Positions 6,288 to 58,299 of a stretch of 64,000 nucleotides of DNA are shown piece after piece. The notes under the pieces were generated by a model. The model was not told where the DNA came from. It worked only from the letters and a program-made list of their open reading frames with translations, and searched no databases. The stretch's first letter is position 1, and each line of letters opens with the position of its first letter. The DNA comes from Macrostomum lignano (lineage: Eukaryota): assembly GCA_002269645.1 (NCBI GenBank), contig NIVC01001521.1, forward strand, positions 210,702 to 274,701, written 5' to 3'. The position numbers were made by a program, and so were the translations under genes.

Positions 6288-8030
6288 TCAGCCAAGGCTT
6301 AGGCTTAACTTAGGCTTCGGGGCTTTGTTCTCGACCAAGTTGAGCACGTAGCTTATAGCTTGGTTGGTGCACTGCGCGTCGACAAACTGTTGCCGCGTCA
6401 TCGGCAACCTCAGAAAATAAGTGAGCACGGCGCGGCATGGCTGAGGGTTCATGACTCCCGCAGTCTCCGCTTCTTTGGGTCGCAGTTGATCACGCGACTC
6501 CGTCATGTCGGCGTCAGGATTAGGTCGCTCCGAGGGACTTTGTCTCACGACGTCGGCGTACGATCGCTGATCTCGTTTCGAAGTTCTCATCATCGCTCTC
6601 TTGACAGGAATTTCTGCAGCTGGAGCAGTGCACTTGCCTCCACTGCACAGCCCAGGCGACTCTTGGCTGTAGGGCGAGACGCAACACGTGAAGCACGCCT
6701 CCTCACAGGCAGCCGTAGCTGTCGGCTCGATCATCATCGTCATTGGGTGAGTCTTTTCCAGCACCGGGCGGTGTTGCAACGGGGGACTCGACTTTCCGCA
6801 CAGGCGATGAGCAGCTGTCTATCGGCTCGGGGGACAGAGCGTTGACCTTGCAGCCGTCGCGAGAGTCTGGCCTCTGTCAACACGGCGAGAACTCTCAGCG
6901 CAAAACTCCGGGGGTTGAACTTACATTGCTGCTCTGGATCTGCGTTGTGGGCCGTCATCAGGAGGGCTGCTTGTTCAGTGGCCTCTGAGTCGTGGTCCAT
7001 GGACGTCTCCAGGTTCCGAGATCCGCAGTCTTGGACATCATCACGGAGGTCTACGTCAGCAGTGGCCTCCGAGGTCTTGTCTGGGCGAATCTCCAAGTAA
7101 CGGCAACCGGCGTGGGCATCTCTGCGGAGGGCTGAGGTATCAGTGGCCTCCGGGTTGCTGTCCAAACCGGTCTCCAGGCGTTGACTGCAGCAATGGTCGT
7201 CGTGCTGAAGGGCTGCTGGCGCAGTGGCCTCCAGGTCTTTGGCCAGGGCAGTTTCGGCCTCCTTGTTGCGAGTGTGAACCTTCTTCGTGCTGGCTGCTCT
7301 CGCAGTGGCCTCACGTGTGGTGTCCAAGTCCGGCTCCAGGCTGGTGTCATCACCGTGTCGGGCTGCAGAACCGGGGTGCTCCAGCAGTCGGCCATGTCTG
7401 AAGTCAACCGGTGGTGTCTCCGGGCGTCTTGACAGGGCGTCAGCGTTGGCGTGGTGATTGCCTTTGCGATGGTGAAGCTGGAAGCGGAACTCGCTCAGTC
7501 GCTCAATCCAACGGCCCAAGATGCCTGTGACCTGCGTCTGGTTCAGCAACCACAGCAAGGCCCAATGGTCGGAACGAACTTCAAACTTCTTGCCGATTAA
7601 ATAATGACGGAAATGTCGCTAGCGTCCACGATTGCAAGCAGCTCTTTCTTCGTAACCGTGTAGCGCTTCTCAGGATCACGAAGTTTCCGGCTAAAGAATG
7701 CAATTGGGCGCTCGACGCCGTCGGATTGCCGTTGTCCAAGACAAGCGCTTATGCGAATGTCTGAGGCATCAGTGTCTAGGACAAACTTCACATCAGGATC
7801 TGAGTTAAACTCGGGCAGAGCGAGAACTTCAGTCGAACACAACTTCTTCTTCAACGTGTCGAACGCTACCTGGTGCTAATCAGTCCAATGCTGCCACAGG
7901 CTGCCGATGTCCTTTCGAGTCAGGGCATGCAACGGCGCAGCAACTCCAGCATAGCCGTTGACAAACTTGTGGTAGTAATTGGCGAGGCCTAGGAATTGTC
8001 TCAGTTGAGTAACGGACTGTGGCACAGGCT
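6288..8030 (-). pseudogene. Gypsy pol remnant (RT C-terminus, RNase H, long linker)
   Basis: ORF pieces 7597..7854, 6740..7558 and 6288..6779 carry RNase H motifs. In-frame stop at HWTD*HQ and frameshifts. Confidence 0.8.
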
Positions 8031-8976: not shown

Positions 8977-11719
8977 GTAAAGTACTTGGTTGGTTTCTTG
9001 TCGCTACTTCCCAATCAGTCAGGTGAGCTGCCTACCTTGAGCTCTTCTGGGAAGTCTCCGGGTTGATCTAGTAGCGTTGGTAGTGCTGCCACCAGCTTCG
9101 CAGAGTTGCAGCCTTCGGTGAGGTGCTGAGCTCGTAGAAGCAAATGAATAAGACAAGAGAGAGAGACTCACACTTCGTGCAGATTTAGCAGTTCTCGCGC
9201 AAAGGTGCCCACCGTCAGCCGTCCCTGCCGGGCTGGTGCGGGGTGAGAGCGAAAGTGCTAGCTCCGGGCGATCTGAGCTGGCTTTTTAATTGATAGCAGG
9301 AGCAACGGAAGCAGGCACGCGCAAAGTTGGGAGTCTTGGAGTTAAACTTAAGCACAAACTTTGACAAAAACACTTAGAAGATTCGCTGGATGAGGAGAAA
9401 CGCTACGCGGAAAACGGAAAACGCAAAACGCTTGTCTGAGCCAAGCCATGAGAGGGGCTGCATTTATAGGGAGAATCGATTGTACCATAGCACGAAAGAC
9501 CCCCGCCGAGAGTCACCTCTGACTCTGATGCTAAATTTAACAACAACAAGCGGGCCCCTGCCTCAGAGGAGGCAGGGGGTCCTGGCACGCGTGATCTCCC
9601 TCATAAACACGAGCCCAGCGTACAATGATGAAATCATTGCACTTTGGACTAAAGAAGGAAAAAGGCCCACAAGTGAAGGCACTCATGACCGTGAGACCGG
9701 AAAACATAACAGCACTCCAAATTTGGAGAGGTAAACAGAGAACGAAACAGAGACAGGCCAGACCAAGCTGTCTGGGCACTGCAAAAAAAGGGAACACGAA
9801 ACAGAAGGGGACAAACGAGGACAAACAGACAGACAGGCAAACGGGCAAAGGACAGGCCAGAGGACAGGCGGGAGGGACAGACAACTGCCCAGCGGCAGAC
9901 AGAAGCCTGGGGCGAGGGCGAGGGAGACAGCTGACTAGTGCGGCGCCTAACTAAACTAGCGACTCACTACACTTATATAAGTATAAATTTCTAGCTTTCC
10001 AGTTTTTAAGCTTATAATAATACCATTTAAACAAATGTTCATGCATATAGACTTTTCACAATAAATAGTATAAACAGAAAACTAAATAATCAACTAAATT
10101 ATCAGATTACAAGGGTCTTTGATGCCATGCAAAAAGTAGTATTCCACTGTAAGGAAGATCCATATACTATAGCCGACCAGCCGTAGCCATAAGCAAATCT
10201 ATGGCTTGTTCTAATTCTATGTATTCTGTAGCCATAGGGACCCAATATTACCATATTCCCATTGTTCCTGTAGCCATAGCCAGTTTTAACAAAAAGTCTA
10301 GAAAACAAAATATTTTAAACCAAGAAGATAACCTGGTGCTTAAACAACTGTGAATTAATTTAAAAAGGAAACACTCAATTGCCTTTGTAAGATTATATTT
10401 CATCTTTTTACGGAGCAACAATACTTACTGGTAATTGCTAATCAAGTACCCTACTAATGTTGTATTTTTTCACATTAATAAAAATTAGAGTTAGCTAGTG
10501 TTTTATTGTACTTTAATTGGTATATCCTATAAGTTTCTCAATTGATAATATAGTTTACTAAAGTATCTTTGTTTTACTTATGTTACAGGCGTGTTTCCTC
10601 TTACTGAAATTATCCCACCGTTATGTCACCAATTAAAGTTGTCGTAGGGGTTACTTTTGTCCTCCAACTATCCCACTAATTGCCACCAAGCTGTGCTAGG
10701 GCTACTAACTTCCTACACTAATCTTTAAGTGTTCTTGTTAAGTTGCTGCCACCAGGATTATCCTATTAATAAATTATGAGTTTATCAATCTTAGAATAAT
10801 CCGAGAAACGTTTCTTAGAATTGATCTGAGTATATATCTTAGTTTAGTCTGAGTATTTAGTCTGAGTATTATTCTTGGAATTATTCTTGGATATTATTCT
10901 TGGAAACTATTAGCCCTTATAAGTATTATTTCTTTGTTATTCTGGTAGCGTTTATTCTGATTCCGGTAGCGTTTACTGTACTTTTGGCCTGACTGGTCTA
11001 TTGGCTATACTGGTATTATTCCATGTACTTTGCAAGTCCTTGGGCGTTACCGAGATCAGAGGGTTACAGCCTCCGGTTATTCTTACACGGATCACTTCAG
11101 ATCTACTTCGTATTCTCTTACTACTCAATACTGCTGCTTCTTAATAGTATGTACTGTATACGCTTCAGTCTATTTCACTCTTACTTCGTAAAAGGAATTA
11201 ACACAGAAAGCACTTCTTCAATTCTTATTTTCTCGGAACTCTTACTATTCGCTATCAATCACTTATTGCGGAACCGCGATGCGCGAGGTTGTCTTCTCCT
11301 CCGCTGAAATCGCTTCTATTTATAATAAAATTTGCTACAGTTTTAAACAAAAATTCGTTAGCGCAAAATAATATAGAAAATACGAGTATTAAAACAAAAT
11401 ATGTTTCTCAGTTTTTTCGCGCGAATTTGAATGACATAGTTTCGATGAATAAAACAGACTAATAGAATAAAGAATAAAGAAGAATTGCCTGCCTCACTTA
11501 CTCTACCTATTTCTAATATTTTTTCAGTTTTTTAAATTAATAACTACAGCTACAGCAATCTACAAAATGTGATAGCAATTACCATATTTCCAAGGCCCCT
11601 AGTCATAGCCATAAGAGCAGCTAGCTACCATAGGTGTATCCATAGTTGCCATAGGCACCTATTTTACCATATTTGCCATGGGATCCCATAGCTGTAGCTA
11701 TGGCTATGGCGGAAAACTA

Positions 11720-37819: not shown

Positions 37820-38669
37820 GTGAGTCGATCAATACAGCAATAAATTTCCTGTTTACCTATAAATGGCAGTAAAATTCCACTTGTTTTAGCTAGTAATGAA
37901 ATCCCAAAGTTTTTTATGGGAATGAAAATAAAAATAATATAATTGATTACATCTGCCTTCATGACCATTTGTGTAACCGATACCATCTAAAGGCTGCGTA
38001 CGGCAGTTCAGTCCAAGAACTAGGGGAGGGGGCGCCACAACACCTTCAATTACCCCAGCTAATGCTGGCACCCATTTTACAGCTGCATGGGTGAACAGAA
38101 GCAATCCAGAATTGATATAAGTGTCTTGTTCAAGGACACAATTTTTTTCAATTATGGTCGTGAAGCTATAGCTACTGATGTGTACTTTTGTTTTGATTGC
38201 AAAGATTGCTTTGAAAAGTTTTAATGCTCCCACTTTTCAAAACAGAATTATAATTAGGCCATAGCGGAACAAAAACCGTTATAAATTATATAATTCTTTT
38301 TCAAAACTTTTGTCTTCATAAGATAAGTTCAACTATGTAAAATCGTTGGAAATTTGCACACTTTTAAATTTTTAAACTACCGTGTCCTATAAGTCGATTG
38401 TACTTGTTTTAAACTCGATAAAACAATATTTCTGTCACAAACAGCCGAGTTGTACGAGCTCTGGAACATTTCTAGAAAAGGATGGCTTTTTACGGGACAG
38501 TTTTTTAACTACTAGTAGCATTACAAAAAATTATTTATTGTACAAGGCATGAAACTTTGCGTAATCACTTGTTAAATACGAGACGTAACTGTTAACCAGT
38601 TTTGTAAAAAGTCTCCAACACTTATTTGCAGATCCTACCTGTCAATCAGCAGCACTAAAGCCTCTTTCG

Positions 38670-41600
38670 ATGGCGGACGATTCTAAAGATAAAAAGAAAT
38701 CTAAAAGGCCTTTGAAAAGGACCATTAGTACTTGGGGAATAAATCCGATTCGAGATCCAAACAAGGAGCTGCTTGAATCTGAAAATAAAGATGAATTCGC
38801 CAATGCCGTAGCTATTTTAAAAAGGACTCCAAATAATCTGGAGCTGCTATCTGACGACAATGGCAAAACAGCCGCTCATTATGCAGCCATGGAGAACGAT
38901 GGAGAAACTCAACTCGCTGAACTCATCCAGATATTCGGAACAGACTGCCTCACAAGTCCTGATATTATCGAAATCACTCCGCTGCATCTGTCAGCGCGCT
39001 ATCACTCAGCTCAGTCTTGGGAACAGAACTTCAATGCTGTGAAAACGGTCAACCTATTTAGGTTAAGAGACGCTAACGGAGACACTTGCGCTCACTGGGC
39101 AGCTCAAAACTCTAAAGACTACAAAATGATGCTTACAGTAAAAAAATAGCTTCAACAGCTTGCTTGAAATGGAAAAACAATAGAAATGAAACAGTATTGC
39201 ACCGTGTGTTTCAGTATTGCAAAAATGATGTTATTGAGGAGATCATGAAAGAAATTGGTAATTTAAAAGACATACTTGGCGAGGAAGATATGCAAGGCAA
39301 TACCATGGCTCATTTTGCTGCTAAAAATTCTAGCATTTTGCTGCTAGAAATCGATGCCATTAAATCCGTGCAACAGATAAAGGCTCCAACACAGAGCGAA
39401 TATCATTGGTTAAAATCTAAAAACAAGCTGGGAGAAACGGTTCTACACTTGGCCCTTCAGCACAACAACGAGGAAGTAGCAACCGAACTTATTGAAAAAT
39501 TAAACGAACAAAAACTGCCAAATTGGTACAAACTGAAAGACGAGCAGGGCAACACATGTCTGCATGCGGCGGCTCAGCACCCTGAAAGAGACGCTGTACT
39601 TCTGAAAGCTGTTAAAGCCGCCATTTGTCAGCGCGACAAAGGTCTGACTGCTAACCCACCTGAGAGCCAGAGTCCACCGACTGAACTGGACTTTCTCATG
39701 GATGAGAACAAGCAAAAATCCACCGTTCTTCACTACGCTGTTGAAAATTGCAGATTGGAAACTGTTCGAGAGCTGCTTAACATGATCAAAGAAGGCCAAA
39801 GCCTTCAGATTGCCGACAAAGAGGGCAATACAATCTTCCACATCGCTGCACAAAGAACAGATAAAAGTGAACTTTTAGAGACGATGTTATTTCGTGAAGG
39901 AGTTGACATAAAGAAAGCTTTAAACAAACGAAATAACAAAAACCAATCGGTGCTTCATCTGGCAATCGACGTCACTGAAGAGACTTCTTCAGTGAAACTG
40001 AACATTAAGAACATTATCAAAGAGATGACAAAGGAGGATCTCAGCCGCACAGACATAGAAGGAAATACTTTGCTACATTCGCTGATGCAGAGCAAATTAA
40101 CATATGACGGTTTTGAGCAGCACATTTTGGATCGATTCACGCTGCTCGTCAGCGAGGGAGTGGATGTGGAAGCCACCAACAATCTCAGTCTAAACTGCCT
40201 GCACGCAACAAAGCTGGATGCTCTTGTGCTCTGCAAGCTGCTAGATAAAGTTCATTCGGACAAAACTGCCAGGAGTTACTTCGATAAACTCTTGGTCAAT
40301 TCAAAGACTGGTGCTCACATAATTCACACATTTTCAGGTCAGTACAAGCTAGATCAGCCTATGTTAAAAAGTATCGAAAATATATCGGAAAGTACTACAA
40401 ACAGCCTGCTTAAAAAAAAAGTCCAGTTACAATCTTGCAAGAACTCGCATCACGGAGAGACCTGCTTGCACTTTGCCTGTGCTTACGGACATCAGGAAAA
40501 TATAATTTTCTTGCTTGAAAAAGGATTGAGTCTCTGGAGCAAATCGCATTCAGGACAGACATGCGTTGACTATGCCATTGAAAGCGGAAACTTTTTTGAC
40601 TTCCGTCAGGCTATGAAGAAATACAACAAGAAACCGAATGAAGATTCAAGCTCTGATACATGTACGTCTCAAAATAAAAAGAATAACGAAGCAGGCTCCG
40701 GGATGTTACCAAATGTTCAGAAACAAATTAAAATGACGGACGTATGGCGCCTTCTGGATCCGCCAAGAAGAGCGCTTAAACTTCCCAACAGGTCAGCAGC
40801 GCGAATGACTCTGGTGTCCATAACCAATCACTACAGTACAAACCAGCAAAAAAAAGACAAGATAGTTCTGACTAAAACGCTGGAATGGAACTCCAAAAAA
40901 CTGTTTCGTGCGGCACTCAGCCTGGAAATCATCACGAGAGAAACCGAGAGGCAATTTACGCAGTATTTCATCGACACAGTAACGAACAACGAAGAATTCC
41001 AGAGAGCTTTTCCCAGACTGAACACGTTCAAGCACCTGACTCATGTGGATTCCACTTCTGAGTTGGCGCTTCTAGACTTGGCCACATTCTTTCATCGTGA
41101 TGAGATCCTGCCTGACCTGATTCTGACTCGACAGTTCGAGCTGATTCCGTGCTGCCTCAGCTTGCTCATCCAGTTGGAACCCGAGATCATCAAGATGAGA
41201 GCCAAGGCAAAGGGCAAGCATGAGCAGCTGCTTCAAGTGAAAAGCAAGATCACGAACATTGCAGTAAACGCACTCAATGAGCTATTTCTTAACGCTAACA
41301 TCATCGAGTTCCAGCTGCTGTCAAAGTACATCAAAGGTGAAATGAAGCATAAAGAAAATTTGGCTTTAAATAGCGAAGCAGCAGCAATGAAGAAAAATCG
41401 CGACTGCTTGGGACCGAAGTTTCCGTACCGAGACTTTAAAGAAGGGAAAATTCAATACGGAAGCGTGCTAGAACTGGTGAAAAAAGCTGACAACCCGGAT
41501 CTGTATGCCACCGACTGCATCTACTCAGTTATCAAAGAAGAGTGGAGGAAGCCCATTTCAGACTGCTCAAAACGAGGTTTATCCGGAAGCTGTCTTCCGT

Positions 41601-43293
41601 GCGACTGCTGCCACAGCGCTTGCAGCTGCAGGCCAAAAATTTCGAGACCGGATTCTCCACTGGCAAGGTTTTGGACCCACTTTGTCGCATTCATAGGGTT
41701 CCTCGTATTCTTTGGTTGGTACGTTATAAATTTCGAGGAAAGTTTCTTAGAACCAAAGTGGGACACTCTTCTTGTTGCCTATCTTTTTTCCTTTGGCTTG
41801 CAAGAAGCGAGTGAAATCTGGAGACTACGAAAAGCTAGAGAGAACTGCAAGATCGGTTCTCATGTACGATCTGTTCCCGCCTACATTGTTGACGGACTCA
41901 ACATTTTCGATGCTCTGGCGATTCTGCTTCTGCTCACCGGCCTTGTTGCAAGATGGTTATATTATGGGATGGGCTTTCAGCTGCAGGATGCTTATCCCAG
42001 TCAAGTTGTCCTGTGCGTGTCGTACTCACTGTTCTGCTTTCGATCTGTCACGTTCCTGACGTATTTCGAGACAATTGGGCCAATGATTAACATGCTTTGG
42101 AATCTAATTGTATACGACTTGTTGCCTTTCCTGGTGGTCTTGTTCGTGATTTTCTGCTGTTTTGGAGTATTCTTTGTGTGCCTGCTGTTTTCTAACGCTT
42201 GGACTCCTACAGAAGAAATCGCTACTCTAAGCAATGGATGGGAAACGTTTATTCAAGCTGCCACGCTACCTTTCAACTTGCTGTTCGGCAACTTCGATCA
42301 GATCGGGTTGAGCTACTCTCCAGATAGCACGGAGCTAGGAAAAGTCGCCATCAAGCAAGGCTATGAATGGTTTAACTATTTCGTAATATTCTTATTCATG
42401 GGCCTGGTGAATGTTGTGATGATGAACTTGCTGATTGCATTGTTTAATTTGCGAGTCACACAAATTTATGGCGTGGCGATCGGCGTCTGGAGAAAGCGGT
42501 TTTTCCAGATGTTAGATGAGTATCAGGAGCTGACTCAATTTCCACCGCCATTGAGTTTTCTGGAGTACATTTACAATTTCCTAATGAAAAAGTTTTGCCC
42601 GAAAAATGCAGTCACTGATGACGTAAGTGGCTTTTCGAAATCTGTTTGTTGTAAGTCATATATTTTGTATGTGCGTCGTTATTACGCTCGTATAAAATGG
42701 GATCAAAGCTGAATGCAGATTTTGGACCACTAATTCGATTTTTAGCTGCCATCAGCTCTATTTCTGTGGGTAAACGTGATTTGTTAAATAACATATATAC
42801 TATTATGAAAAAAATTGTATTTCAGAAAGCCTCTAGGTGGCCGAACGACACGGAGGACTACCCTGAAGAGTACAACCGGTTCCTAAAGTTCCAGGCGATA
42901 CAGTTCCGCCGGTGCCGGTCCCGCCTGCTGCTCGACACCGAGTGGAACAGAAACGACTTCGACGTGGTGAAGGCGCACACGGGCAAAGAATTGTCGGAGT
43001 TGAAAGCGGAATTACAAGAGATGCTGGACGATGCGAATACTCAAGGCCAAGGAAAGGTAAGCTATCGCGGGCTCCAAAAGGAGACGCAAGTATATGAAGA
43101 AAATGTATCTGTGGAACCGAATCTGCCTTCGAAAAAGCAGCAAGAGACGAACAGCAGTGAGACTGTGTTTACAGAGCTGAAGCAACAATACCAAAAAATT
43201 GAAGATAGAATGAATCGACAGGAGCAACGAAGTTCAAACATTGAATCCAAGCTGGACCAGCTTTTGAAACTTTCTAAGCCGCAAAAAAAATAA
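38670..43293 (+). CDS. Ankyrin-repeat TRP cation channel (TRPA/TRPN-like N-terminus, TRPM-like S1-S6 and TRP helix); exons 38670-42622 (frameshift at the A7 run 39140-39146) and 42826-43293
   Basis: Many ankyrin repeats (GKTAAHYAA, GNTMAHFAA, GETVLHLAL, GETCLHFAC) and six TM segments. Channel motifs IGPMINMLWNLIVYDLLPFL, PFNLLFGNFD, MNLLIALFN and WRKRFFQMLDEYQELTQFPPPL. Phase-0 intron GAC|gtaagt...ttcag|AAA and a coiled-coil tail. Confidence 0.9.
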
Positions 43294-44427: not shown

Positions 44428-45818
44428 TATCTTAATTTGCCTTCTATCATAGTAGGATTAGCATATGTACACTTATTGCGTTTGTTTTTCGTCAAAAAGA
44501 CGCTTTAAATCTCTAAAACTTTTCTAAACTCACGCAATCTATTTTACTATAATCCACCTATACTAAATGTCTTATTATATAATATGTTTAATCAAAACCA
44601 ACAATAGTTTTGATTGTTAGTTTTAATCAATTTAGATTAATTTAAATTTAATGTCAATGTGTCAAATGAGCATGCGCATGATGATATCTAAAATAGCTAT
44701 AAATAATATTATGTTTGCTGTGGTTTCTAATTTTTTTACACATTTATTTCTATTGTGATATTATGTGAGCGTTTCATGAATGTCAACCGTACTCAGAACC
44801 ACTAACGGTAGGGGTAAATCATGTAGCTTGGTATCAATATATATACGCTTCCTGTGATCACATGAAGTTTTGGCACTATGAGCCTTAGGAATTAACCACA
44901 TATTTTAAATTACAATATATTAGTTTTGGAACTTGATAATTGTAGACTCTATTACTTATACGAGTATAATTTTCTAAATAACAGCTGGTACTGTTCCGTA
45001 GTTTTCCATTTTAAAAATAGTTTTCGCAGCAGTTTGAAGCTTTAGAGATAGCTACAGATGTTAAATTATTCCTTTAAATATACGAAAAATTTCTAATCAG
45101 TTTTTCAGAGTCAATCAGTTTTTATTTGTTTATTTTGGCATGCGGCAACCAACAGGTAAGTTAACTTACGTTAAGTTAAGTTAAGTTAGCAACCAACTGG
45201 TAGAATGTATGCTTGGCCTAATTCTGCTGCAAATTATTATCAAAAAGCTACTTAGCAGTTGATTTCGAAAGGAAAACGAAAAGGAAAAGGACTGATGTAG
45301 ACACGCATACCATGTACTCGTTATAAGGTTTCGCCGAATTTGTACAAAAGGTAGCTTACGTGTAGCATTGACGTCTGCTAACGTTGCATAGAGACCGGAT
45401 AGTCATGGGACACTTCGGGATCCTGGAACCATGGAAAATGCTAGAGGGTATAGTGAGCTAACATTGATGAAAGCAAATACCATATTGCGAATCAATAGAG
45501 CTCACAAAAGAACTGTGCGCTGTGATGGAGAGAGGATATCTGCATTGAAGCCGTCACCAACAAACAACGGAAGAAAGTAGTAAGCATGTTTGGTTCATGT
45601 TGTGTCGAAGTGGGTCCGAATAGGTTTGTCAGGTTTGACAGATAAAAGTGCATACGATTGTATAGTTGAATCCGGCTCGTAGCCGTAAGAAAATGCGCAG
45701 TCTTGCTTTTAGAAAGTATCAGAATTAGTGAACTGCAAGCGTCAAAATAAAATAGCTTGCATTCAATACCATGGACATCACACCCCTCCCTTTCCTGAAT
45801 TGTAACGTGTTGGCATTT

Positions 45819-47081
45819 TTAACAATGCTCTGTTACGGAGATTGTAACCAGGTGCAGGTCGCTGGTCGGTTTCAAACTTCTCTGGTAGTTGACCGAAATT
45901 TCTACCAGCCTTTTCTGTAAACTGTGAAGCATCTTGTTTTGTCTCAGCAGAACTTTAGAATCATTCCATATCAGCTTTGGCTCAATAGTCTCTTGTAGTC
46001 GTTGTCCTGTCTTCAGAAGCTGATCCGCGTGACGTTTCCAAAGTAAATCACCAACTCGAACAGAGTAAGTCAACGGGGCTGTGCGTCTCAGAATAGTTCC
46101 AAGAGCCCATCTGTCTTTTCCTCCTCGTAAATCCTGAACCAGAACTCTCTCTCCAACGAAAAAGTCCACTGACGCCGTTCGTTTAGTGTCATGTCGCTCT
46201 TTTTGTTTGTCTTGGGCGCACAAGACCTTTGATTCCGCATCGGGAAAGAGCAACGACAGTTTTGTTCTCAGATTTCTACCAAAAAGAAGTTCCGATGGAG
46301 TCTTTCCAGTTGTGCTGTGAGGTGTAGCTCTGGCCCGGAACATGAAGTTTGCTAGCTGCTTTAGTATGTCGATCGCCTTCGCCTGATGCTTTTAAAGCCT
46401 TTTTTACTTGCTTTACCATATTTTCAGCCAATCCATTTGACATTGGGTGAGCAGGACTACTCAAAGAGTGTCGAATACCATTTTGTCTTTAAAAATCCTT
46501 AAATTTATATGACGTGAATAAAGAACCATTGTCAGAATGAAGCACTCGTGGTAAACCAAATCTTGCAAATATTTCTCTCAATGATCGAATCGTGCTTTCA
46601 GATGTTGCATTTTTCAGGGTATCACCTCCGCAAACTTACTAGTCGCATCAACAACAACTAAAAACATCCACGACCTGAATGGTCCCATATAGTCTACATG
46701 AATTCTTGTCCAAGGAGTAGTTGGCCACGAAAATGGACTGAGAGGTGCTTCCGGTGGATTTGAACGCTGTAGTCGGCACCCTCGGCAGTTGCTCACACTG
46801 TCTTCAATGTCCCTGTCTATCTGTGGCCACCAGCAGTACATCCTGGCCCTTGACTTGGTAAGAACCATACCTGGATGACCTTCATGAAACTCTTCAAGAA
46901 CCAAACGCTGCAAAACTTGTGGAACAATTACTCGCATTCCTAGCAACAGTGCACCTGACTCTATGCCAAGCTCATGTCTCTTTTCATAGTACGGCCTCAA
47001 ACTAGCTTCGATTTCAGTGGCGGAATCTGGCCATCCTTGCCTGGATAAAATCAGTACTTTCTTGAGAATTTGGTCCTTCAA
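45819..47081 (-). pseudogene. Gypsy integrase
   Basis: HHCC zinc finger (HEGHPG...CRGC), PWTRIHVDYMGP, HPMSNGLAE and a GPY/F-like tail. Confidence 0.92.
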
Positions 47082-48481
47082 GGTTCTTCTGCGATGACGT
47101 TAGCTTGCACTGGAAGTCTGCTAATTAAGACTTGCTGAACCAAGCTCGAGGTTGTTTCGTTATTGTCCTCACTCTTTTCCGGGAGCCTTGATAGCCCATC
47201 AGCATTGCAGTGATGGTCAGTTTTTCTGAACTTTATGTCGTACGAGTGCGCACCAAGGAGCATGGCCCATCTTTGCAATCGACTGGCTGCTACAGGTGGA
47301 ATCGGTCTTTGTGGATCAAATATCGCTATGAGAGGTTTGTGATCCACCAGCGTGAATGATCGACCAAACAAATACTCATTAAATTTCTTTAGACCAAAAA
47401 TTATCTCGAGAGCCTCTTTTTTTATCTGGGCGTAATTCTTTCAAGCCGACGACAGAGTTCTTGATGCATATGCAATCGGTCTATCCCCAGTCGGCGTTTC
47501 ATGCGAGATCACAGCTCCAAGACCGTAGGGTGAAGCATCACACTCTAACTTCAGCTTCTTCGACGGGTGATAGCGCATCAGTACCTTGCTCGAAATGAGT
47601 TGGTCCTTTATTTCACTAAAGGCAGACTCACAATCGTTCGACCAATCAAAACCGGCTTCTTTGCGCAATCTCTTATAGAATGGGTGCATTAACGTAGCTA
47701 GGTTTTGGATGAACTTCCCATAGTAATTTACCAGCCCAATCCAGGCTCTCAATTCAGAAATATTTTCAGGTCTCGGTGCATCCCGAATCGCCCTAACTTT
47801 GTCTCCAGTGGGATGGATTCCATTTTCATCCATTCTGTATCCAAGGAATGTGACTGATTGCTGCATAAACTTACATTTAGATTGCTTTAGTCTCACGCCA
47901 CGTTCTCGGAAACGTTGTAGTACAGCTCGCAGGTTGTTCAAATGTTCTTCGGAGTTCTTGCCAACCACAAGGACATCCTCAATAAAGCAAATGACCCCAT
48001 TCAATCCCTGTAGCATCTTGTCCACAGCCAGTTGAAATACAGCAGGTCCGCTTGCCAAGCCATATTGCAACCGCTGACACTGGTATAGTCCTTTGTGTGT
48101 ATTGAGTACCATGTACTGCTTGGAATCTTCATCAAGCTCCAGCTGTAGAAAGGCTTGTGTCGCATCCAGTTTAATAAAATATTTCCCTCCATTCAAAGCA
48201 CTAAAGAGGTCTTCCTATCTCGGTAGAGGGTACTGATCGACAAGTAGAACTTTGTTCAGGGTTGTTTTAAAGTCGGCGCAAATCCTCATTGATGTACCGT
48301 CAGGCTTTAGCACCGGTACAATCGGAGTGGCCCAGTCAGAATGCGTGACGGGGTGAATAACACCTTGCTTTTCTAGGCGATCAAGTTCAGCTTCAACAAA
48401 CGGCTTCATTGCAAAAGGCATGGTGCGAGCTTTGCAGAAAACCGGCTGACTTGCTTCTTTTATTTTCACAACTGCTTTCAC
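47078..48481 (-). pseudogene. Gypsy reverse transcriptase and RNase H
   Basis: WATPIVPVLKPDG, LQYGLASGPAVFQ, FIEDVLV (degenerate YxDD), ECDASPYGLGAV, DHKPL...RLQRWA. Confidence 0.92.
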
Positions 48482-48607
48482 TCCTGATATCTTTCCGATG
48501 TCTTATTTAAACACGTCAGAATAGTTGCTGAGGATTTCAACCAGATCATTTTTTTCTTGATTGGTAACAACCTTTCTAATATCTTCTAAATTGTTTAAAA
48601 TCTCATT

Positions 48608-49809
48608 TCAGTTTAGCTTCAATCCATCCTTGCCCATCCAGTCTCGACCAAGCAAATTCGATCCTTTTCCAGACACAGCGAGTATCGGAAGCTGCTTCTT
48701 CTGATCTATGTATTCGGCAGTGACCATACATTCACCAAATACTTCAATTTCTCCCCCCAAGTAGTGTCGGAGGTGGGTATTGCTGGGCTTTAGCTTTAAT
48801 CCCAGTCTTTCTGCAGTTTCCTTAGTCAGGATTGTTCGTTCGGCTCCAGTATCAATTTCCAGATGGACAGTAGTACCATTTATCTTCTTCATATCTAAAA
48901 AGTAGCCACGTGCCTTTCCACCAGACAATCTGTTGATACTGGGTGGCGAATCTGAACGGTTGCTGCTTAGTTCACCAGGTGTGATTTCTACGATTTGCTT
49001 ATTATGAAATCCATTTGATGGTACTGTTGATCTGCAAGCTATTCCCAAATGGCCTACCTTACCGCACTTCTTGCATTGTTTGTTGCAGTGCGGACAAGCG
49101 TTTGCCAAGTGGTCCATAGCGGAACACCGATAGCACTTCCGTTGATTTGCTGACTTATTTGTTGGGCGCAACTTAAATGGAAATGGAGCAGTTCCAGTAG
49201 GGCCTCGAAATGTGGATGGCTTATGTGTCTGAGGCTTCACTTTTCTTGTGTCCAATCTCTTCACATCGCTTGCAAGGCCTTGAATGCTTCGTGCATTTTT
49301 GCACGCATTTTCAATCACATGAGCTGCTTCAACTGCGTCCTTAAATGAAGACTTTTCTTCTAATGATGTAAGCAGTCTGTTCAGCATTTGCTCGTCTCGG
49401 AGACCGAAAACAAAGGCGTCTAAATGACAAACCTATTCGGACAAACAAAAGGCGCCTGATCCAAGAAGGTGTCGCAATTACAGCTTGCACTGAGGCTTCG
49501 TAGACTTACCACGAATTCGGCAACTGTTTCACCATCCCTTTACTTCCGTTGAGCAAACACAATTCTTTGTGCAATCGAACTCATTGTGGGCACAAACTGA
49601 GATTTGAGCGCTTTAAGTAGCTCATCGTAGGTCTTGTCCTTGCACTTCTGAGGAGCGATTGAATTCCGTAATATTGAGAATGCTTCCTCACCAATCAACG
49701 TGAGCAGATTAGCTTTATTTAGCGCCTAATCCGTAATTTTGTTTGCCACCAGGTAAAATTCGAGTCTTCGTACCCAGCTGCGCGGATTGCTGCAGTTAAA
49801 AGTTTCCAT
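48608..49809 (-). pseudogene. Gypsy gag (two CCHC knuckles) plus aspartic protease
   Basis: ATG at 49809 (METFNCSNPRSWVRRLEFYL...), knuckles CYRCSAMDHLANAC and CKKCGKVGHLGIAC, protease motif EIDTGA. In-frame stops. Confidence 0.88.
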
Positions 49810-50081
49810 TGTCGTCCTCGTCGGAATTTGTTGTGTCGAAATGGGTCCGAATAGGTTTGTCAGGTTTGACAGATAAAAGTGCATACGATTGTATAGTTGA
49901 ATCCGGCTCGTAGCCGTAAGAAAATGCGCAGTCTTGTTTTAGAAAGTAACAGAGTTAGTGAACTGCAAGAGTCAAAATAAATAGCTCGTATTCAATACCA
50001 TAGACATCACAGTTCATAAGCACCCTCAGTCAAGTATCAGTGCAAACTCATCAAAATCATGAGGTCGGATGTGCAAGTTTA

Positions 50082-50446
50082 TTAGCAAGGAACATGTACT
50101 GCGCATTCGCATGGATAAATGTCCAGCATGGGAAATATCTGCACGAAGTGTCGTAAAAGAAGCCACTGCTTGTGCCATATGGGAAGATCCACCCAGGATT
50201 TCAGTGCTCTGTGAATGATCTCTGAAGTGCTTGAGTCCCAGCCCAGAGAGTTAAAGAGTTCTATGGAATTCTCCTTATTAAGCATAGCAAACCACCCAGT
50301 GACCAAAGGATGAGCTGTACTGAAGCAGAAATAAAAAAGCTTACAGTGAAATAATTTTTGTGAGATTTTGGATTCAATTTAATTATTAAACAGTCATTCG
50401 GTGGAAAAAAGCTTTTAGTCAGTTTAAGCAATTGAAAAGCATCCAT
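50082..50446 (-). pseudogene. Adenain-like cysteine protease remnant
   Basis: Across frameshifts: CLIIKLNP...GHWVVC...ELFNSLG, resembling the IVNTDP...GxHW...EYFDSYG pattern. Confidence 0.6.
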
Positions 50447-50523
50447 ATTACCTTGTAGCAGCGTACTTCTAGGATGGAAAGTCTAGCAAAATCTCCCTGT
50501 GCTTGGTGACCTCAATCAGTGAG

Positions 50524-51707
50524 TCATACAGGCACATAACAATCAGAGATACAGGCTCCTCCAGGGCCTGACGGAAGCGAATCTCCAGCCGCAAATTGCC
50601 CTCCTTCTGTCCGTACCACAGGGCCGCCTCCCTCAGGCGTGAGATCGAATGCGAAAGCTGTGTTGCCGTTGGAGAACAACTGGTAGGGGACCCACGGAAC
50701 CGAGTTGGTAGGGCTGGCTGACTGACAGCTTTTCAGGTAGTGCAAGTACTCTCTCACGAATGAATTATTCTCAGGTGCAAATGCACTGTGGCACATGGCT
50801 TCACCACCTTTCTTTAGTGCTAGCTGGCTGAGATCGAAGCTCTGGAACTCGAAGGAGCTGGAATGATGATGGCCATTGAAGGCTCGATGGTTCACGAAGA
50901 CCAGCATAACGAACTTCGGCAGTTTGTCATGAGTGAATCCTTCAATGTTTTTGACTGAATTCCGTGAGGTAGAATAAAGTTTTGCATTTCGGTTTATGCG
51001 CCAGGCTGATGTGAGGCGCCACTTTGACTCGGCGCAGGTTCAGAATGCAGTGGGAGATTTCCATTCGGTAGGCTGTGTTGTTCTCATCTGGGGTTCGGAT
51101 GGCGAATGCAGCATCGCTGGGCATCAGCTTGATGTGCAGGTGTAAATTGTTCAGCAGCAGAACAGGACACTGGAAGATGTCGCTGAGCAGTGGTCCCGCA
51201 TACTCCACCCAGCGGGACTCCCTGTGTCTCTCGGCATGCCCCTCAGCAGCAGTTTCGGGTTCCAGGAATCCGGCGGGGTAGAACTTTAACTGCTGAGCAT
51301 CGGATGAGCTCATGAGAGCTTTTAGGTAGGCATGGTAGGGGTAGAGCTGGTCTCCACCTGATACAATGCGCTGGTTGATGCTCACGATTACATCTGAGAA
51401 TGCTGTAGTCAGGACAAAGTTTTCTGGGTGCACCCCACTGTCTCTGCGCTCAGTGACAACTCCATCGGCATTCCGAACCTCCTCCCATCAAAGCCCCGCC
51501 AAGCCGGACTAGGCGACAGCGAATATACAGGAATGAGCTCAGCAGATCAGTGTACTCATCAGCCGATGGATTGCAGCCGAATTCAATAGGTGAGTTAGTA
51601 GTAATAGAGTTCACGGGGTGAATATCAACATATGTGGATTTTTCAATGGCGATCTGCAGCATGGGGGACTTGAACAAATCGAGTCTCGGGTTGAATCCGT
51701 AAGCCAT
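50524..51707 (-). pseudogene. Polinton major capsid protein (PY, double jelly-roll), frameshifted
   Basis: LDLFKSPMLQIAIEKSTYVDIHP...PIEF...YTDLLSSFLYIRC; FSDVIVSINQ...YPYHAYLK; GPLLSDIF...CILNLRRVKV; AFNG...FDL...AFAFDLTP. Confidence 0.85.
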
Positions 51708-51709
51708 TG

Positions 51710-52078
51710 CTATGAGAGCGAGTCCAGAACACGTTTCACAGTTTTTTTGCTCACTTTTTGCTTTCCTTTGCCTGTTTTCTTGCTTCGAGTTTTAGACCTC
51801 CCTTTCTTAGGTTTATTTCGCCCTGACTGGCTTGTTTTCGGTGATTTCTCAGTCTTACTCTTTTTCTTCTTTTTTATCTGCCTCTTACTGCTCTGTTTGA
51901 CTAGTCTTTGCTTTGTTCTTTTTCCACTGCTTCTGCCTCTGTTGTTGCTGCTGCTGCCGCTGGTGCTGGTATGGGCTGGCTTTGATAGCGATAATGACTG
52001 TGTGGAAGCTTCTGGAGGAGGCTGGTAAGTCATAATTCCTGGAAAACTCCCACAGCCATAGAGCGCCGGCTTTTGCAT
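51710..52078 (-). CDS. Small Lys/Arg-rich Polinton protein (putative core/DNA-condensing protein)
   Basis: Intact 122-aa ORF with a strongly basic C-terminal half. Its stop lies 2 nt before the capsid ATG. Confidence 0.6.
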   Translation of the reverse strand: MQKPALYGCGSFPGIMTYQPPPEASTQSLSLSKPAHTSTSGSSSNNRGRSSGKRTKQRLVKQSSKRQIKKKKKSKTEKSPKTSQSGRNKPKKGRSKTRSKKTGKGKQKVSKKTVKRVLDSLS

Positions 52079-52126
52079 GGCTTCCGGCCAGAGTCCCTGA
52101 ATACTGACGAATCAGCTGTTGATAGT

Positions 52127-52953
52127 TTATTGTATTAGCCTTTCCCGAATATAAACTGTGAGCAGAACAGGGCTGCTGCTCCGAGCAGTCAGTGAGTAGC
52201 CAAAGATGTCACGCAGTTGAAATCTGATGCCATGTAGAAAATTAGCTTTCTGAATCGGGAAGAAAATTGCTTTCTTAAACACTTTGCTCATGTAGCTGCC
52301 CCATTTGACATCGGATGACATGCTCACAGTTCGCAGCACGGAGTTCCAGTTGCAGTTTGTTGGCTCCACAATGCTGCAGTGCAAGTTGATCAGGTTGGTG
52401 GGCGGACAACCGATGCAGCAGCGTGAAACTTGCCGTCCGGTGGGATCTTCACAGGCTGGTTTCCGAATCCCAGCCACTGCAGAATTTTACTTGATGGAAG
52501 GAACAATTCTGCTCGAGCCGTGTTGTTGAGCACTACCGTTCTCAATTCTTGGATTTCAAACTTTATGCCAATATCTCTAGCGCTGCTCCGCCCCATTAAA
52601 CCGGACTCATCAGCTTCCATTTCAGACTCCCTTTCGCTCATTGCATCAAAGAACAGTGACTCAGAGTTGGCCAGCAGCTCATTCATGCGCTCAACCAGTT
52701 CCTCCACTCTAGCAAAGCGTCCGGGTTGAAGAACCAGGGTCTCATGCTCTCTTCCATCTGAGACAGTGAAGCAGTAAGGCTCGTCAACATTGAACCATGC
52801 AGCAGGCAGATGGATTTCAGCCAGACCTGCCTCATAGTCCACATTTCGATCCAAGTAAATAGGTGAAGGCAGGTGAAAATGAAAGTCATTAGGAGTACCT
52901 TCAGCATTTTCGCTACAAATGATGATGCTTCTCATAGTTGGGAATGGCTGCAC
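52127..52953 (-). pseudogene. Polinton minor capsid (penton)-like protein, frameshifted
   Basis: N-terminus TPNDFHFHLPSPIYL...EAGLAEIHLPAAWFNV and C-terminus FFPIQK...IRFQLRDIFG resemble the Maverick minor-capsid pattern. Confidence 0.7.
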
Positions 52954-52965
52954 AATGTCGTTATC

Positions 52966-53949
52966 TTACACTTTTCTTAAGTCCTTCTCATCCACCCAGT
53001 CAGTCGAGTTGTAGCCGGCCCACTTGACGAGATATCGGATCTTACCCTTCCGCTTCTCAGTCTTCAGAGCCTTCTCGATTACATACAGCCGCTGCGAGTC
53101 TGGAACAGCTTGCAGCTCATGCTCGTGGAATAGGCCTCTAATGTCTTCCCCCTTCATGTCTCGAATCCTGTACATGTAGGGATAATGCTTTGGTGCCCTA
53201 GACACTATGGTGTACACCTCCTCGCTCCAGTTCGCCTTGTATCCCTTCCTGAAGAGTCTGGGTGCATTGAAAATCCGCACTGATTGGTTTTCACGGAACT
53301 TCGGTTTTCTCAGTTTCTCAACTGTCTCAATCGCTTTCCCATCATAAAGGTTCATCCATGCTTCAGTCTCGTTTGCTTTGCTGACATTCATAGGTGTAGT
53401 CTTGATGCTTCTGTGGAAAGTATTGTTATAGGACTTGACCAGTTTAGGCAGCACATCAAGCCATTGTAGAGTGCTGTTGTGAGTAAAGTAACGCAACATC
53501 TTACTTTTTAAAGTTCGACTCCATCTTTCAATTATGGCTGATTTCCTTTCCCTGATCTGTGCGGACAGTGCGCGGCTGCCGCTTTGAGCTCTTCAGCATG
53601 CTCTCAAACGCAGATTTCACTTCTGCCGCACTCTTAGACTTCAGTGCTCTGGCCATTGCAATTTTGGATAAAACACCAATGCAGGTGAGAATGTATTTTT
53701 TCCCGCGATTGTACTTCGCAAATGGAATCATTTCCACCAGATCCATCTCCCACTGATCATCAATGGCCCTCACTATTATTGGCACCCTTGGAAATCGTAC
53801 TCTAGCTGGTTTATGTACTGGCTGCTGACTTAGCCACTGCTGAATGCTCTTAACTCCAATATGCTCGCCTCTTTTTCGCAGTTCATGTTTCAGTTTTGAA
53901 GAACTGCAATCGCTCGCAGGCTGATTTGGGTTGAAATATTTTTTTCCAT
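52966..53949 (-). pseudogene. Polinton integrase with C-terminal chromodomain (frameshifted)
   Basis: YFNPNQP...HKPAR...DDQWEMDL...TDQGKE, then KANWSEEVY...G.FHEHELQ...IEKAL...YLVKWAGY. Confidence 0.9.
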
Positions 53950-53992
53950 TTTCAGAAACAAGGAAACATATTTCAATTTCTTTTTTTCTTAA

Positions 53993-55850
53993 TGATGGGT
54001 TTCGACCTTCGGGCCCCTTGTTAGGGAAGCCTTCGGGCCTCAGGCCTCAGAAATAAATCAATTAGAGTCCTGGCCCCCTCACTCCTGTCAGATGGTCAGC
54101 CCCCATGGTAGCTTGATCGTGTGGCGAGCAGTCTAGGTCCTATAGCTAAGAGAGGGACAGCGAGAGACGAGCAGGGAGAATTTTGAAGGTAGAAATTAGC
54201 TAATCCGCAGACTAAGCTAACTCGCTGCCACCAGCCCGTGCGCCCTAACTCACCACACCGGGGCTCTCGAAATCGGGCTTCCGACTAGAAGGGGCTTTGC
54301 ACTTACCTGCCAACTAGTGTCTTTTCGCTGTCAATCTCGAAGTCATAGCCGATGATAAAGGACACTGCTGGGACTAGATCGCATTGGCCATGCAGGTACA
54401 GAGGGGACTTGTGCAGGGATTCTTGCAGTGGCGAGACTATGGGGTAGCTACATGTACTATTACATTGCTAAATACGAAGATATGTACTTTTGGCCTTCAA
54501 CGCGCCAACTAGCCTCTCATAGCGCTGATGATAGACTAACTCGAACTTCAGAGACCGCATGATTCATCACCCGAGCCGCTTGGCGAACCTAGAGTGCACA
54601 AAGTACATCTCTGGCGCCGATTCTGCACTTCTGGCAGTTTTACTCACTGATTTGATTGATTGATCGACTGAGAACCGCCTTGCCATTGGTCCACTGTGAC
54701 CGGCGCCTACTAGCTTAGCTACTCATCTGAGCCATCGGCGAACAAAGAACTAAAACCGATAAAATAACTGTTAGATTTAACCTTCTCCTTAGATCACTTC
54801 ACACCTCAGATTGAATTGGAGTTTCAGACTACTAGCAGTATTATTGAATGACTTCTGCCTCAGCAACAGCACTACTGAACAAAATGAGCAAAAGTGTGCG
54901 CCTAATTCAGCTACTGAAATAAGGGACAGACAGGGAATCACCCAATCAAGCAAGTCTAGGTAGCCTCTCACCCAACCAATCAGAAACTCAACAGCCGGAG
55001 ACCAGGAAATCCACGGTGACCGAATCGGCTTGATGCTTCGCAGCTGTAGACTCGGGATGATGCTGACACAATCTTCGCTGATAGCTAGCAGGTGATGATC
55101 TTAACTTTGATGTTCGCTGCTGCTGACCGGGGGACTCGTCCTTGATGATGATGGGGGGGGGGGAAGTCGCAATCCGGGGATCAAGAAACGACAGTCAGGC
55201 TTCAGGAATCAGAAGTTGCGTGCTGTGCCCGAGCAAGAGTGAGTCCGAGCGGGCCAAAAACACCGGTTTAAATAGCCGCCAACTGGACCACAGTTTGTTA
55301 TAATGGAACACGTCGATTCTGATTGGCTGAGCCGTTTTGTTAAAATGAGCGCCGAATTTTCTGATTGGCTGAGCTAGTTGCCACCCAAAATCACGTGACC
55401 GGGAGATCCTATCAGTTCCCACAGGGTCATAAAAAGATGACAGATGCGGCCATAAATCAATCAAAATCGCAACAAAATGATTTATGACTTTTCGCGTAGG
55501 ATTGACAGAAATTAATGTGAAAATATTCATTAGAAAGCCCTTATTAAGTAGAAAGTAAAGATGATGAAGAGAAATCGCTAATCGCTAATCCCAAAGTACT
55601 TTTAGGGGTAAAACGCATAACTGTCAAAGCTGTCACACGCTTGAGTGAATCCGAACAATAGGCTCTGACCTCATAAATCTGATGGCCTGTCAAAAATGAT
55701 GAGAAAAAAGCTACTATTCGCATCCCCTCAGACCATCTGGCGCCGGCCTCAACACTGAGTGAGGCGCAGGTGGCTGTCAGACCAACTTTTAAAACGATGA
55801 TTTATGACTCAAAAAGTCACGCCTATGCTATTATGCCTACTAGTATGACC
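53993..55850 (-). mobile_element. LTR copy A (about 1.86 kb), no adjacent PBS, inverted relative to copy B
   Basis: Reverse complement of 56442-58299. Its 3' end (...CCCATCA on minus) lies at 53993. Confidence 0.85.
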
Positions 55851-56441
55851 AAACCATTGCGGGCCATTGCGAGACGCTTGAAGCCTCGGCAACAGAGCTG
55901 CAGCCGCAGGCAGGGGTGTCGGAACCGGGGGGGGGGGGGCTGGAGCTCCCCACTATTTAGCATGATCCTGCAAATTCCCTTTTTAATTTTAAACAAATGT
56001 TGGCCGGTTTTGGGCTTTGGCTTTTCTGGGTCTTTCTGAGTCTTTGGTTTTTCTGAGGGTACAAGCTGGAGCTAGAGGGCGCCGTTGCTATCCTGCACAC
56101 CCTAGAGTCAATGTACATGTAAGAAAAAAGAATGTACCGTCGCCAGTGGGGGGCAGTGGTGGTACTAGGGGTTTGTACACAGCTTGTGCGCCCTTCCCCA
56201 AGCGACAAGCCTCCTTTCTTTCTTTCTCTGCCCCCCATCGGCACCGTTTGTGATTGTATAGGCGTCGTCACCCTCAATCGGGTATGTGGACAAATAACAA
56301 ATAAGTTAATTGATGAGGACGCACTTTTTCCCAAATCCCGCGCTAGCACATGGGCTCTAAACTTACTAGCCTACTAACAGTGGGCAATGGGCATTTTTAT
56401 CCTTTTTCTGCGAATAGTCATATAATCTATACTAGATATAA

Positions 56442-58299
56442 TGTCATACTAGTAGTCATAATAACATAGGCATTGCTTTTTGGGTCATAAATCATCGCTT
56501 TCGAAGCTGGTCTGACAGCCACCTGCGCCTCACTCAGTGTTGAGACGGGCGCCAGATGGTCTGAGAGGATACGGGCGGTAGCTTTTTTCTCATCATTTTG
56601 ACAGGCCATCAAGATTTACGAGGTCAGAGCCTATTGTTCGTGTTCACTCAAGCGTGTGACAGCTTTGACAGCTATGCGTTTTACCCCTAAAAGTACTTTG
56701 GGATTAGCGATTAGCAATTTCTCTTCATTATCTTCACTTTCTATTTAATAAGAGCTTTCTAATGTATATTTTTTCACTAATTTCTGTCAATCCTACGCGA
56801 AAAGTCATAAATCATTTTGTTGCGATTTTGATTGATTTATGGCCGCACCTGTCATCTTTTTACGACCCTATGGGAACTGATAGGATCTCCCGGTCACGTG
56901 ATTTTGGGTGGCAACTAGCTCAGCCAATCAGAAAATTCGGCGCTCATTTTAACAAAACGGCTCAGCCAATCAAAATCGACGTGTTCCATTGTAACAAACT
57001 GCGGTCCAGTTGGCGGCTATTTAAACCGGTGTTTTTGGCCCGCGCGGACCTCAACCTCCTGGGATCTTAGCCTAGCTTGAGACATCCCGGAGCGCGACCG
57101 TCGTTTCTTGATCCCCGGATTGCGACTTCCCCCCCCCATCATCATCAAGGACGAGTCCCCCGGTCAGCAGCAGCGAACATCAAAGTTAAGATCATCACCT
57201 GCTAGCTATCAGCGAAGATTGTGTCAGCATCATCCCGAGTCTACAGCTGCGAAGCATCAAGCCGATTCGGTCACCGTGGATTTCCTGGTCTCCGGCTGTT
57301 GAGTTTCTGATTGGTTGGGTGAGAGGCTACCTAGACTTGCTTGATTGGGTGATTCCCTGTCTGTCCCTTATTTCAGTAGCTGAATTAGGCGCACACTTTT
57401 GCTCATTTTGTTCAGTAGTGCTGTTGCTGAGGCAGAAGTCATTCAATAATACTGCTAGTAGTCTGAAACTCCAATTCAATCTGAGGTGTGAAGTGATCTA
57501 AGGAGAAGGTTAAATCTAACAGTTATTTTATCGGTTTTAGTTCTTTGTTCGCCGATGGCTCAGATGAGTAGCTAAGCTAGTAGGCGCCGGTCACAGTGGA
57601 CCAATGGCAAGGCGGTTCTCAGTCGATCAATCAATCAAATCAGTGAGTAAAACTGCCAGAAGTGCAGAATCGGCGCCAGAGATGTACTTTGTGCACTCTA
57701 GGTTCGCCAAGCGGCTCGGGTGATGAATCATGCGGTCTCTGAAGTTCGAGTTAGTCTATCATCAGCGCTATGAGAGGCTAGTTGGTGCGTTGAAGGCCAA
57801 AAGTACATATCTTCGTATTTAGCAATGTAATAGTACATGTAGCTACCCCATAGTCTCGCCACTGCAAGAATCCCCTGCACAAGTCCCCTCTGTACCTGCA
57901 TGGCCAATGCGATCTAGTCCCAGCAGTGTCCTTTATCATCGGCTATGACTTCGAGATTGACAGCAAAAATACACTAGTTGGCAGGTAAGTGCAAAGCCCC
58001 TTCTAGTCGGAAGCCCGATTTCGAGAGCCCCGGTGTGGTGAGTTAGGGCGCACGGGCTGGTGGCAGCGAGTTAGCTTAGTCTGCGGATTAGCTAATTTCT
58101 ACCTTCAAAATTCTCCCTGCTCGTCTCTCGCTGTCCCTCTCTTAGCTATAGGACCTAGACTGCTCGCCACACGATCAAGCTACCATGGGGGCTGACCATC
58201 TGACAGGAGTGAGGGGGCCAGGACTCTAATTGATTTATTTCTGAGGCCTGAGGCCCGAAGGCTTCCCTAACAAGGGGGCCGAAAGGTCGAAACCCATCA
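56442..58299 (+). mobile_element. LTR copy B (about 1.86 kb), 5' LTR of a Gypsy-type element
   Basis: TGTCATAC...CCCATCA, followed after 2 nt by a tRNA-Leu PBS. Two CCAAT boxes (56924, 56966) and TATTTAAA (57018-57025). Confidence 0.85.

Follow-up and report, generated by a model that had tools for sequence, protein, structure and literature searches.

A helix-less, lysine-rich PW-slot protein in a Polinton lineage of Macrostomum lignano: a candidate protease-trimmed core protein

Introduction

What is the function of a small, strongly basic gene lying between the penton and the major capsid genes of a Polinton? The question is raised by a stretch of Macrostomum lignano DNA of 64,000 nt (assembly GCA_002269645.1, contig NIVC01001521.1, positions 210,702–274,701 of the forward strand), here called the window, in which the minus strand of a Polinton fragment carries, in order, integrase, penton, a 122-aa basic ORF, capsid, and protease. 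The Maverick module has been published as INT-mCP-PW-MCP-PRO, with PW called uncharacterized (Barreat and Katzourakis 2021, PMC8097293). Because the order in the window matches the published module, we treat the basic ORF as the PW-slot gene; PW belongs to the same module in the same order, and the identification rests on the slot. PW is among the last core Polinton genes without a function.

An earlier note on this DNA, made from the letters alone, had described the order penton, basic ORF, capsid, protease as that of the adenovirus late region and had proposed that the ORF encodes a protease-matured, DNA-condensing core protein. The order is confirmed, and integrase lies upstream, but its adenovirus-like character was overstated as a finding: it is that of the Maverick module, and the penton–core–hexon–adenain synteny among adeno-, adinto-, and adomaviruses has already been stated in print (Welch 2020, 10.1101/341131). 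Gene order is thus already known. The new finding is modest: in one lineage PW is without the lytic helix predicted for its relatives, and the protease and a second core gene show parallel changes.

Results

The window holds a decayed Polinton fragment

What remains here of a multi-copy Polinton is a decayed stretch of ≈ 3.8 kb (≈ 50195–53992), 92–94% identical to its nearest sister copies (Table 1). Segment by segment, its genes are 78–100% identical to the sister proteins, and comparison with a sister copy bears out the earlier statement that the neighbors of the basic ORF are frameshifted: integrase, penton, capsid, and protease all are. Pfam searches of the window fragments returned integrase, chromo, and ankyrin domains only. 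The upstream part of the element is missing beyond ≈ 53992, both element ends are lost, and protein-primed PolB is absent from the fragment. A duplicate locus (L011), 99.9% identical to the window copy and carrying the same breaks, continues for 1.45 kb past the point (≈ 50195) at which the protease is cut off in the window, and includes the remainder of the protease. The window copy is most likely non-functional.

The basic ORF is no exception to this decay, although it had been taken for intact. The family start codon is absent and family residues 1–21 lie in another frame, so the 122-aa ORF is a 5′-broken remnant. Its composition is as first described, rich in K and R (26 K and 9 R, 29%), with a computed pI of 11.6.

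Table 1. Minus-strand features of the Polinton fragment, in gene order (window positions)
Feature	Position	Strand	Basis
rve integrase with C-terminal chromodomain, frameshifted	52966..53944	-	Pfam rve, Chromo; tblastn of sister integrase, two frames
Penton (minor capsid protein), one frameshift near residues 165–180	52127..52935	-	92–95% identity to sister protein
5′ part of PW-slot gene (family residues 1–21), without family start codon, out of frame with the rest	52068..52130	-	
122-aa basic ORF, body of PW-slot gene, 5′-broken	51710..52078	-	
LYGCG motif, candidate GX↓G maturation site (ORF residues 6–10; ↓, point of cleavage)	52049..52063	-	
Conserved C-terminal motif ending VLDSLS	51713..51742	-	Invariant or nearly so in alignment A7 (takes in outside homologues and family B)
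Double jelly-roll major capsid gene, several broken frames	50469..51707	-	Comparison with sister copy; sister fold
Adenain-like (clan CE) protease, frameshift near residues 32–39, ends ≈ 50195	50193..50446	-	

Module order is kept in sister copies

Four families in the M. lignano genome enter the comparison: family A, to which the window copy belongs, its sister family B, and families C and D. From 121 genome matches, 40 sister loci were chosen, non-randomly, across identity tiers. Conservation of gene order had been proposed as a check on the earlier reading, and the order INT-PEN-basic-MCP-PRO is complete in 31 of the 40, with a consistent subset in the remaining 9 and none out of order.

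The identities of the neighbors are clearest in intact copies. The capsid model of a sister copy (pLDDT 80) is a double jelly roll matching the PBCV-1 (E 2.5e-15), iridovirus, and mavirus capsids, and the penton model (pLDDT 73) matches the mavirus and adenovirus pentons (best E 4e-8). The sister protease has a Peptidase_C5 match (E 4.1e-5, above cut-off); it is adjoined by a P-loop protein with weak Pox_A32 and AAA scores. The rve integrase is found by Pfam in both the window and the sister copy, and DNA_pol_B_2 (E 1.8e-22) lies beside the module in one family-A copy (L125). Searches of the flanks for terminal inverted repeats gave no pair in six family-A copies and one pair for a family-B copy, and no relatives came from scanning IMG/VR with the capsid.

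The slot is not universal, since integrase rather than penton lies directly upstream of the PW-slot gene in family D (L094–L096, L102–L106, L108) and in L069; there, penton-like and GasderminX-like genes are found further upstream, and the second glycine site is YEGYG.

Two further observations concern family-A elements. One copy (L020) encodes a TBP-like protein (9319–9885; Pfam E 1.3e-22) and a PC4-like protein (1930–2658; E 8e-5, below cut-off) in the same element, and family B has a similar ORF in the same place. Two family-A modules (L119 and L019) share one contig (G000:C2692) and the same orientation, with ≈ 9 kb between them.

The basic gene is real and under purifying selection

In most sister copies the gene is a separate ORF of 116–138 aa. 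It starts ≈ 17 codons earlier in 31/40 sampled loci, with start and motif in frame, and in the copies inspected the family start ATG overlaps the penton stop. The 17-codon block containing the motif has 0 nonsynonymous against 3–8 synonymous differences among four copies (L020, L012, L023, and L032); the more distant L026 has 5.3 nonsynonymous differences there. The basic middle of the protein drifts in sequence and varies in length, and the K/R tail drifts freely, at a net charge of about +30. The gene is real, with its N-terminal block, motif, and C-terminus under purifying selection.

A profile search of the full library found five outside homologues (E 1e-48 to 9e-5), in each of which GxG, the basic tail, and the terminal VLDSL are retained; a word search with the first 45 aa recovered one homologue. 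The homologues are lysine-rich, arginine making up 21–41% of K + R.

The glycines, not the leucine, are the conserved part of the site

LYGCG had been described as fitting the adenain consensus. The motif is indeed present, and is found in 36/40 sampled loci (the rest have LHGCG, LNGCG, LHGCE, and TLWCG); LxGxG is kept in 38/40 family-A loci, the exceptions being one copy with GCE and one without the P2 glycine, both of which may be decayed. Shuffled sequences have such a site by chance somewhere along their length in 11% of cases, and among their first 30 aa in 2.5%.

Outside family A, the P4 leucine does not hold. P4 is P, L, C, C, and E in the five outside homologues (leucine in 1/5) and P or S in family B, which likewise keeps GxG; in alignment A7 the P2 glycine is invariant (12/12) and the P1′ glycine nearly so (11/12). 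The S-x-P-G that follows is as conserved as the site itself. Since P4 varies outside the family while GxG is kept, what is conserved is the pair of glycines, the adenain-type leucine being a trait of the family. Adenain cuts (M/I/L/N/Q)XGX↓G, and the mavirus protease cuts GG↓X and GX↓G (PMC6048507). As P4 falls outside the adenain set in 4/5 outside homologues and in family B, cleavage there would need a relaxed, mavirus-like specificity; the kept GxG fits the looser GX↓G rule.

Most slot proteins carry an amphipathic helix that the window clade lacks

Distant Polintons (capsids 24–46% identical) and families C and D have, just ahead of the capsid gene, a gene for a basic protein of 99–184 aa. 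We examined 143 slot proteins, 23 from loci and the best 120 of 133 database hits, a set dominated by one subfamily. QxGG or QxGxG is found within the first 60 residues in 138/143, an extended adenain site in 141/143, and two sites in 127/143; an amphipathic 18-mer is present in all 143 (120/120 database hits and 23/23 loci). The helix is absent in family A (moment 0.14–0.22) and in the five outside homologues, and family B is borderline (0.27–0.40). The clade of the window thus differs from the other slot proteins sampled in being without their helix.

Direct comparison of the two forms gave little: hhalign of helix-less against helix-bearing proteins was non-significant (probability 0.2), and HMM scores were −1 to 4 bits, equalled by 2–63 of 300 shuffles. 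Ranking 529 ORF starts by the helix-less N-terminal profile puts slot proteins in 17 of the first 19 positions, via a common I..YSG motif. Together, the slot and this N-terminal YSG signal weakly suggest that the helix-less protein is homologous to the helix-bearing PW.

In the capsid tree (35 rows), a 100/100 branch divides families A and B, together with six database capsids, from every helix-bearing row. The tree is unrooted, drawn at its midpoint, and comes with a long-branch warning; on it, the helix-less state is more parsimoniously read as a loss.

A second core gene and the protease differ in the same clade

The GasderminX-like gene (profile built without the L069 ATPase fragment) has a Q/M-x-GG site and a hydrophobic tail at its end in families C and D and in metagenome loci (8/8 seeds). 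Adeno_PX matches the gene product in L104 (E 2.3e-6) and L076 (E 0.0066), with no match in L100. In families A and B, none of 31 homologous matches has the Q/M-x-GG site, and Adeno_PX gave no match in the two proteins tested; family A keeps a short hydrophobic segment at the end of the gene. One copy (L012, minus strand, oriented 6959–7975) has the ATPase and GasderminX-like ORFs fused as a 338-aa frame, probably a lesion.

The protease differs at the residue after the HW motif, a position that we take to be catalytic: asparagine in 30 family-A and 10 family-B matches, and aspartate in 19 metagenome and 16/17 family-C/D matches. Families A and B also have a 230-aa gene whose terminal GxG is kept (26 A matches and 10 B matches); its product is a possible second substrate of the protease.

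Discussion

Proposed role and alternatives

We think it probable that the PW of the window lineage is a helix-less, lysine-rich, DNA-binding core protein of the virion, and predict that the protease of the element trims it at GC↓G. Because the predicted membrane-breaking helix is missing, the protein is likely to be mainly a DNA-packing core protein. By analogy with the pVI-N and pVII-N peptides of adenovirus, the conserved first ≈ 25 residues would attach the precursor to the inner face of the capsid; the basic tail would neutralize the genome, binding DNA as proposed for the mavirus capsid tail; and cleavage after GC would, on the model of both, free the DNA-bound part from the shell in maturation. 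This keeps what the earlier note had proposed as the best reading, given a selected gene, a kept GxG, and a basic tail; for homology to pVII, the sequence searches give no evidence.

The alternative that weighs most, though we hold it unlikely, is that the product is a packaged core or cement protein in which GxG is a structural turn of a capsid-binding peptide, no longer cut in this clade. The freedom of P4 (L, P, C, E, S), the S-x-P-G conserved equally with the site, the GasderminX-like gene of the clade also being without its GG site (0/31), and the Asn of its protease where others have Asp are all in keeping with an uncut turn; the constancy of the P2 and P1′ glycines, the retained HW, Q, and C motifs of the protease, and the kept GxG that ends the 230-aa gene of the same clade argue for cleavage. 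It is improbable that the protein acts outside the virion as a nuclear protein (nucleolar, chromatin-binding, or a transcription helper), its K/R tail serving as a localization signal: the tail is poorly conserved in sequence and TBP and PC4-like genes occur in the same elements, as such a role might allow, but the gene is packed tightly between penton and capsid across very distant lineages, and relatives carry protease-type sites.

True homology to adenovirus pVII, with the common order reflecting an inherited pVII gene, strikes us as very improbable. In its favor stand the small size and basic character of the protein, a gene lying between those for penton and capsid, and a GxG site near the N-terminus; pVII is cut at residues 13 and 24 (PMC8156859). 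Set against this, the window protein is lysine-rich whereas pVII is arginine-rich, relatives carry a pVI-like helix, and searches found nothing of adenovirus: among the 25 Pfam families listed for 12 members there is no Adeno_VII or pVI match at E up to 10, the 23 helix-bearing members searched gave none with E ≤ 1, and PDB sequence searches with both alignments returned chance matches only and no adenovirus chain. Finally, we give next to no credence to the idea that the ORF opened by chance or belongs to a neighbor whose frame has shifted, the latter being one outcome that the earlier note had named as fatal to its reading. The frameshifted 5′ end of the window copy might prompt this thought, but it is refuted by the separate ORFs of sister copies, the purifying selection, and the outside homologues.

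Comparison with known systems

A trimmed core protein in the PW slot would have close parallels elsewhere. In adenovirus, pVI and pVII, the genes of which lie close to those for penton, hexon, and protease, are likewise basic proteins with an N-terminal protease site; pVI is cut at residue 33, ahead of its lytic helix (PMC8156859). The helix-bearing slot proteins have the pVI layout (site, then amphipathic helix), and the helix-less protein has the pVII layout (short N-peptide, then basic body). It is the missing helix alone that makes the window lineage look like pVII; the wider family looks pVI-like. This pVI likeness is architectural, given the outcome of the Pfam and PDB searches. Two further differences from adenovirus are these: a single Polinton gene takes the place of VII, V, X, and VI, and P4 is unconstrained.

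The mavirus capsid offers a parallel for the cleavage. Its C-terminal domain, cut by the virophage protease, has a basic segment proposed to hold DNA and to be freed from the shell on cleavage (PMC6048507), and its GG↓X and GX↓G sites leave P4 unfixed, as in the window clade. There, however, the basic segment is part of the capsid protein, whereas the Polinton basic protein has a gene of its own. Adomavirus LO6, in the same slot, has been reported in virions in an apparently cleaved form (10.1101/341131).

Among adintoviruses, Cupiennin and GasderminX have been proposed as membrane-active core proteins (Starrett 2021, PMC8502044), and the text of Fig. S2 of that paper places Cupiennin near penton and hexon in Beta-class elements, as a matter of layout. 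From this map layout we infer that Cupiennin, PW, and the slot of the basic ORF are one and the same. Families C and D share with the Beta class a helix-bearing slot protein and a pX-tailed gene; families A and B differ, having no helix and a GasderminX-like gene without the GG site or a detectable pX tail.

Taking these systems together, we tentatively suggest, as a speculation we regard as doubtful, that PW is the Polinton counterpart of pVI, with tandem sites, a lytic helix, and a basic tail, and that one clade has turned it into a pVII-like DNA condenser, lost the cleavable pX-like tail of GasderminX, and changed an active-site residue of its protease, giving up endosome-lytic entry for another route of spread. 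If true, this would illustrate how a single ancestral gene can give rise to distinct core proteins, one lytic and one condensing. The comparison of slot proteins itself makes specific predictions: most lineages should have a lytic helix and tandem Q/L-x-G sites, with a natural helix-less variant in the lineage of the window. The two PW forms are a natural pair for testing PW with the Polinton protease, and bear on the origins of adenovirus core proteins.

These comparisons draw on passages of the cited works and of 10.1101/697771, PMC11071296, 10.1101/2023.08.22.554363, PMC11071308, PMC5803895, PMC4028283, 10.1101/2025.02.07.637071, and 10.64898/2026.07.28.741253. Within that scope, PW is given neither cleavage sites nor a pVI/pVII role in any paper we found, a helix-less PW form is not described, and we found no test of a Polinton core protein in particles.

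Other features of the window

The place expected for the missing upstream part of the Polinton is occupied by a 4.3-kb foldback (53993–58299) with arms of ≈ 1.86 kb, 96% identical, which has only short patches in common with the fetched Polinton loci. On the other side of the fragment lies a broken Ty3/Gypsy-type LTR retrotransposon (45598–50011) with reverse transcriptase, RNase H, aspartyl protease, and zinc knuckle, and with 185-bp terminal repeats that are 95% identical. Further away, at 38589–43293 on the plus strand, a 1198-aa ankyrin-repeat ORF with hydrophobic C-terminal segments and two in-line flanking ORFs presumably resembles an intron-poor TRP-type channel gene. Many tandem arrays, with units of 12, 23, 28, 41, 49, and 99 bp, are found between 260 and 36100.
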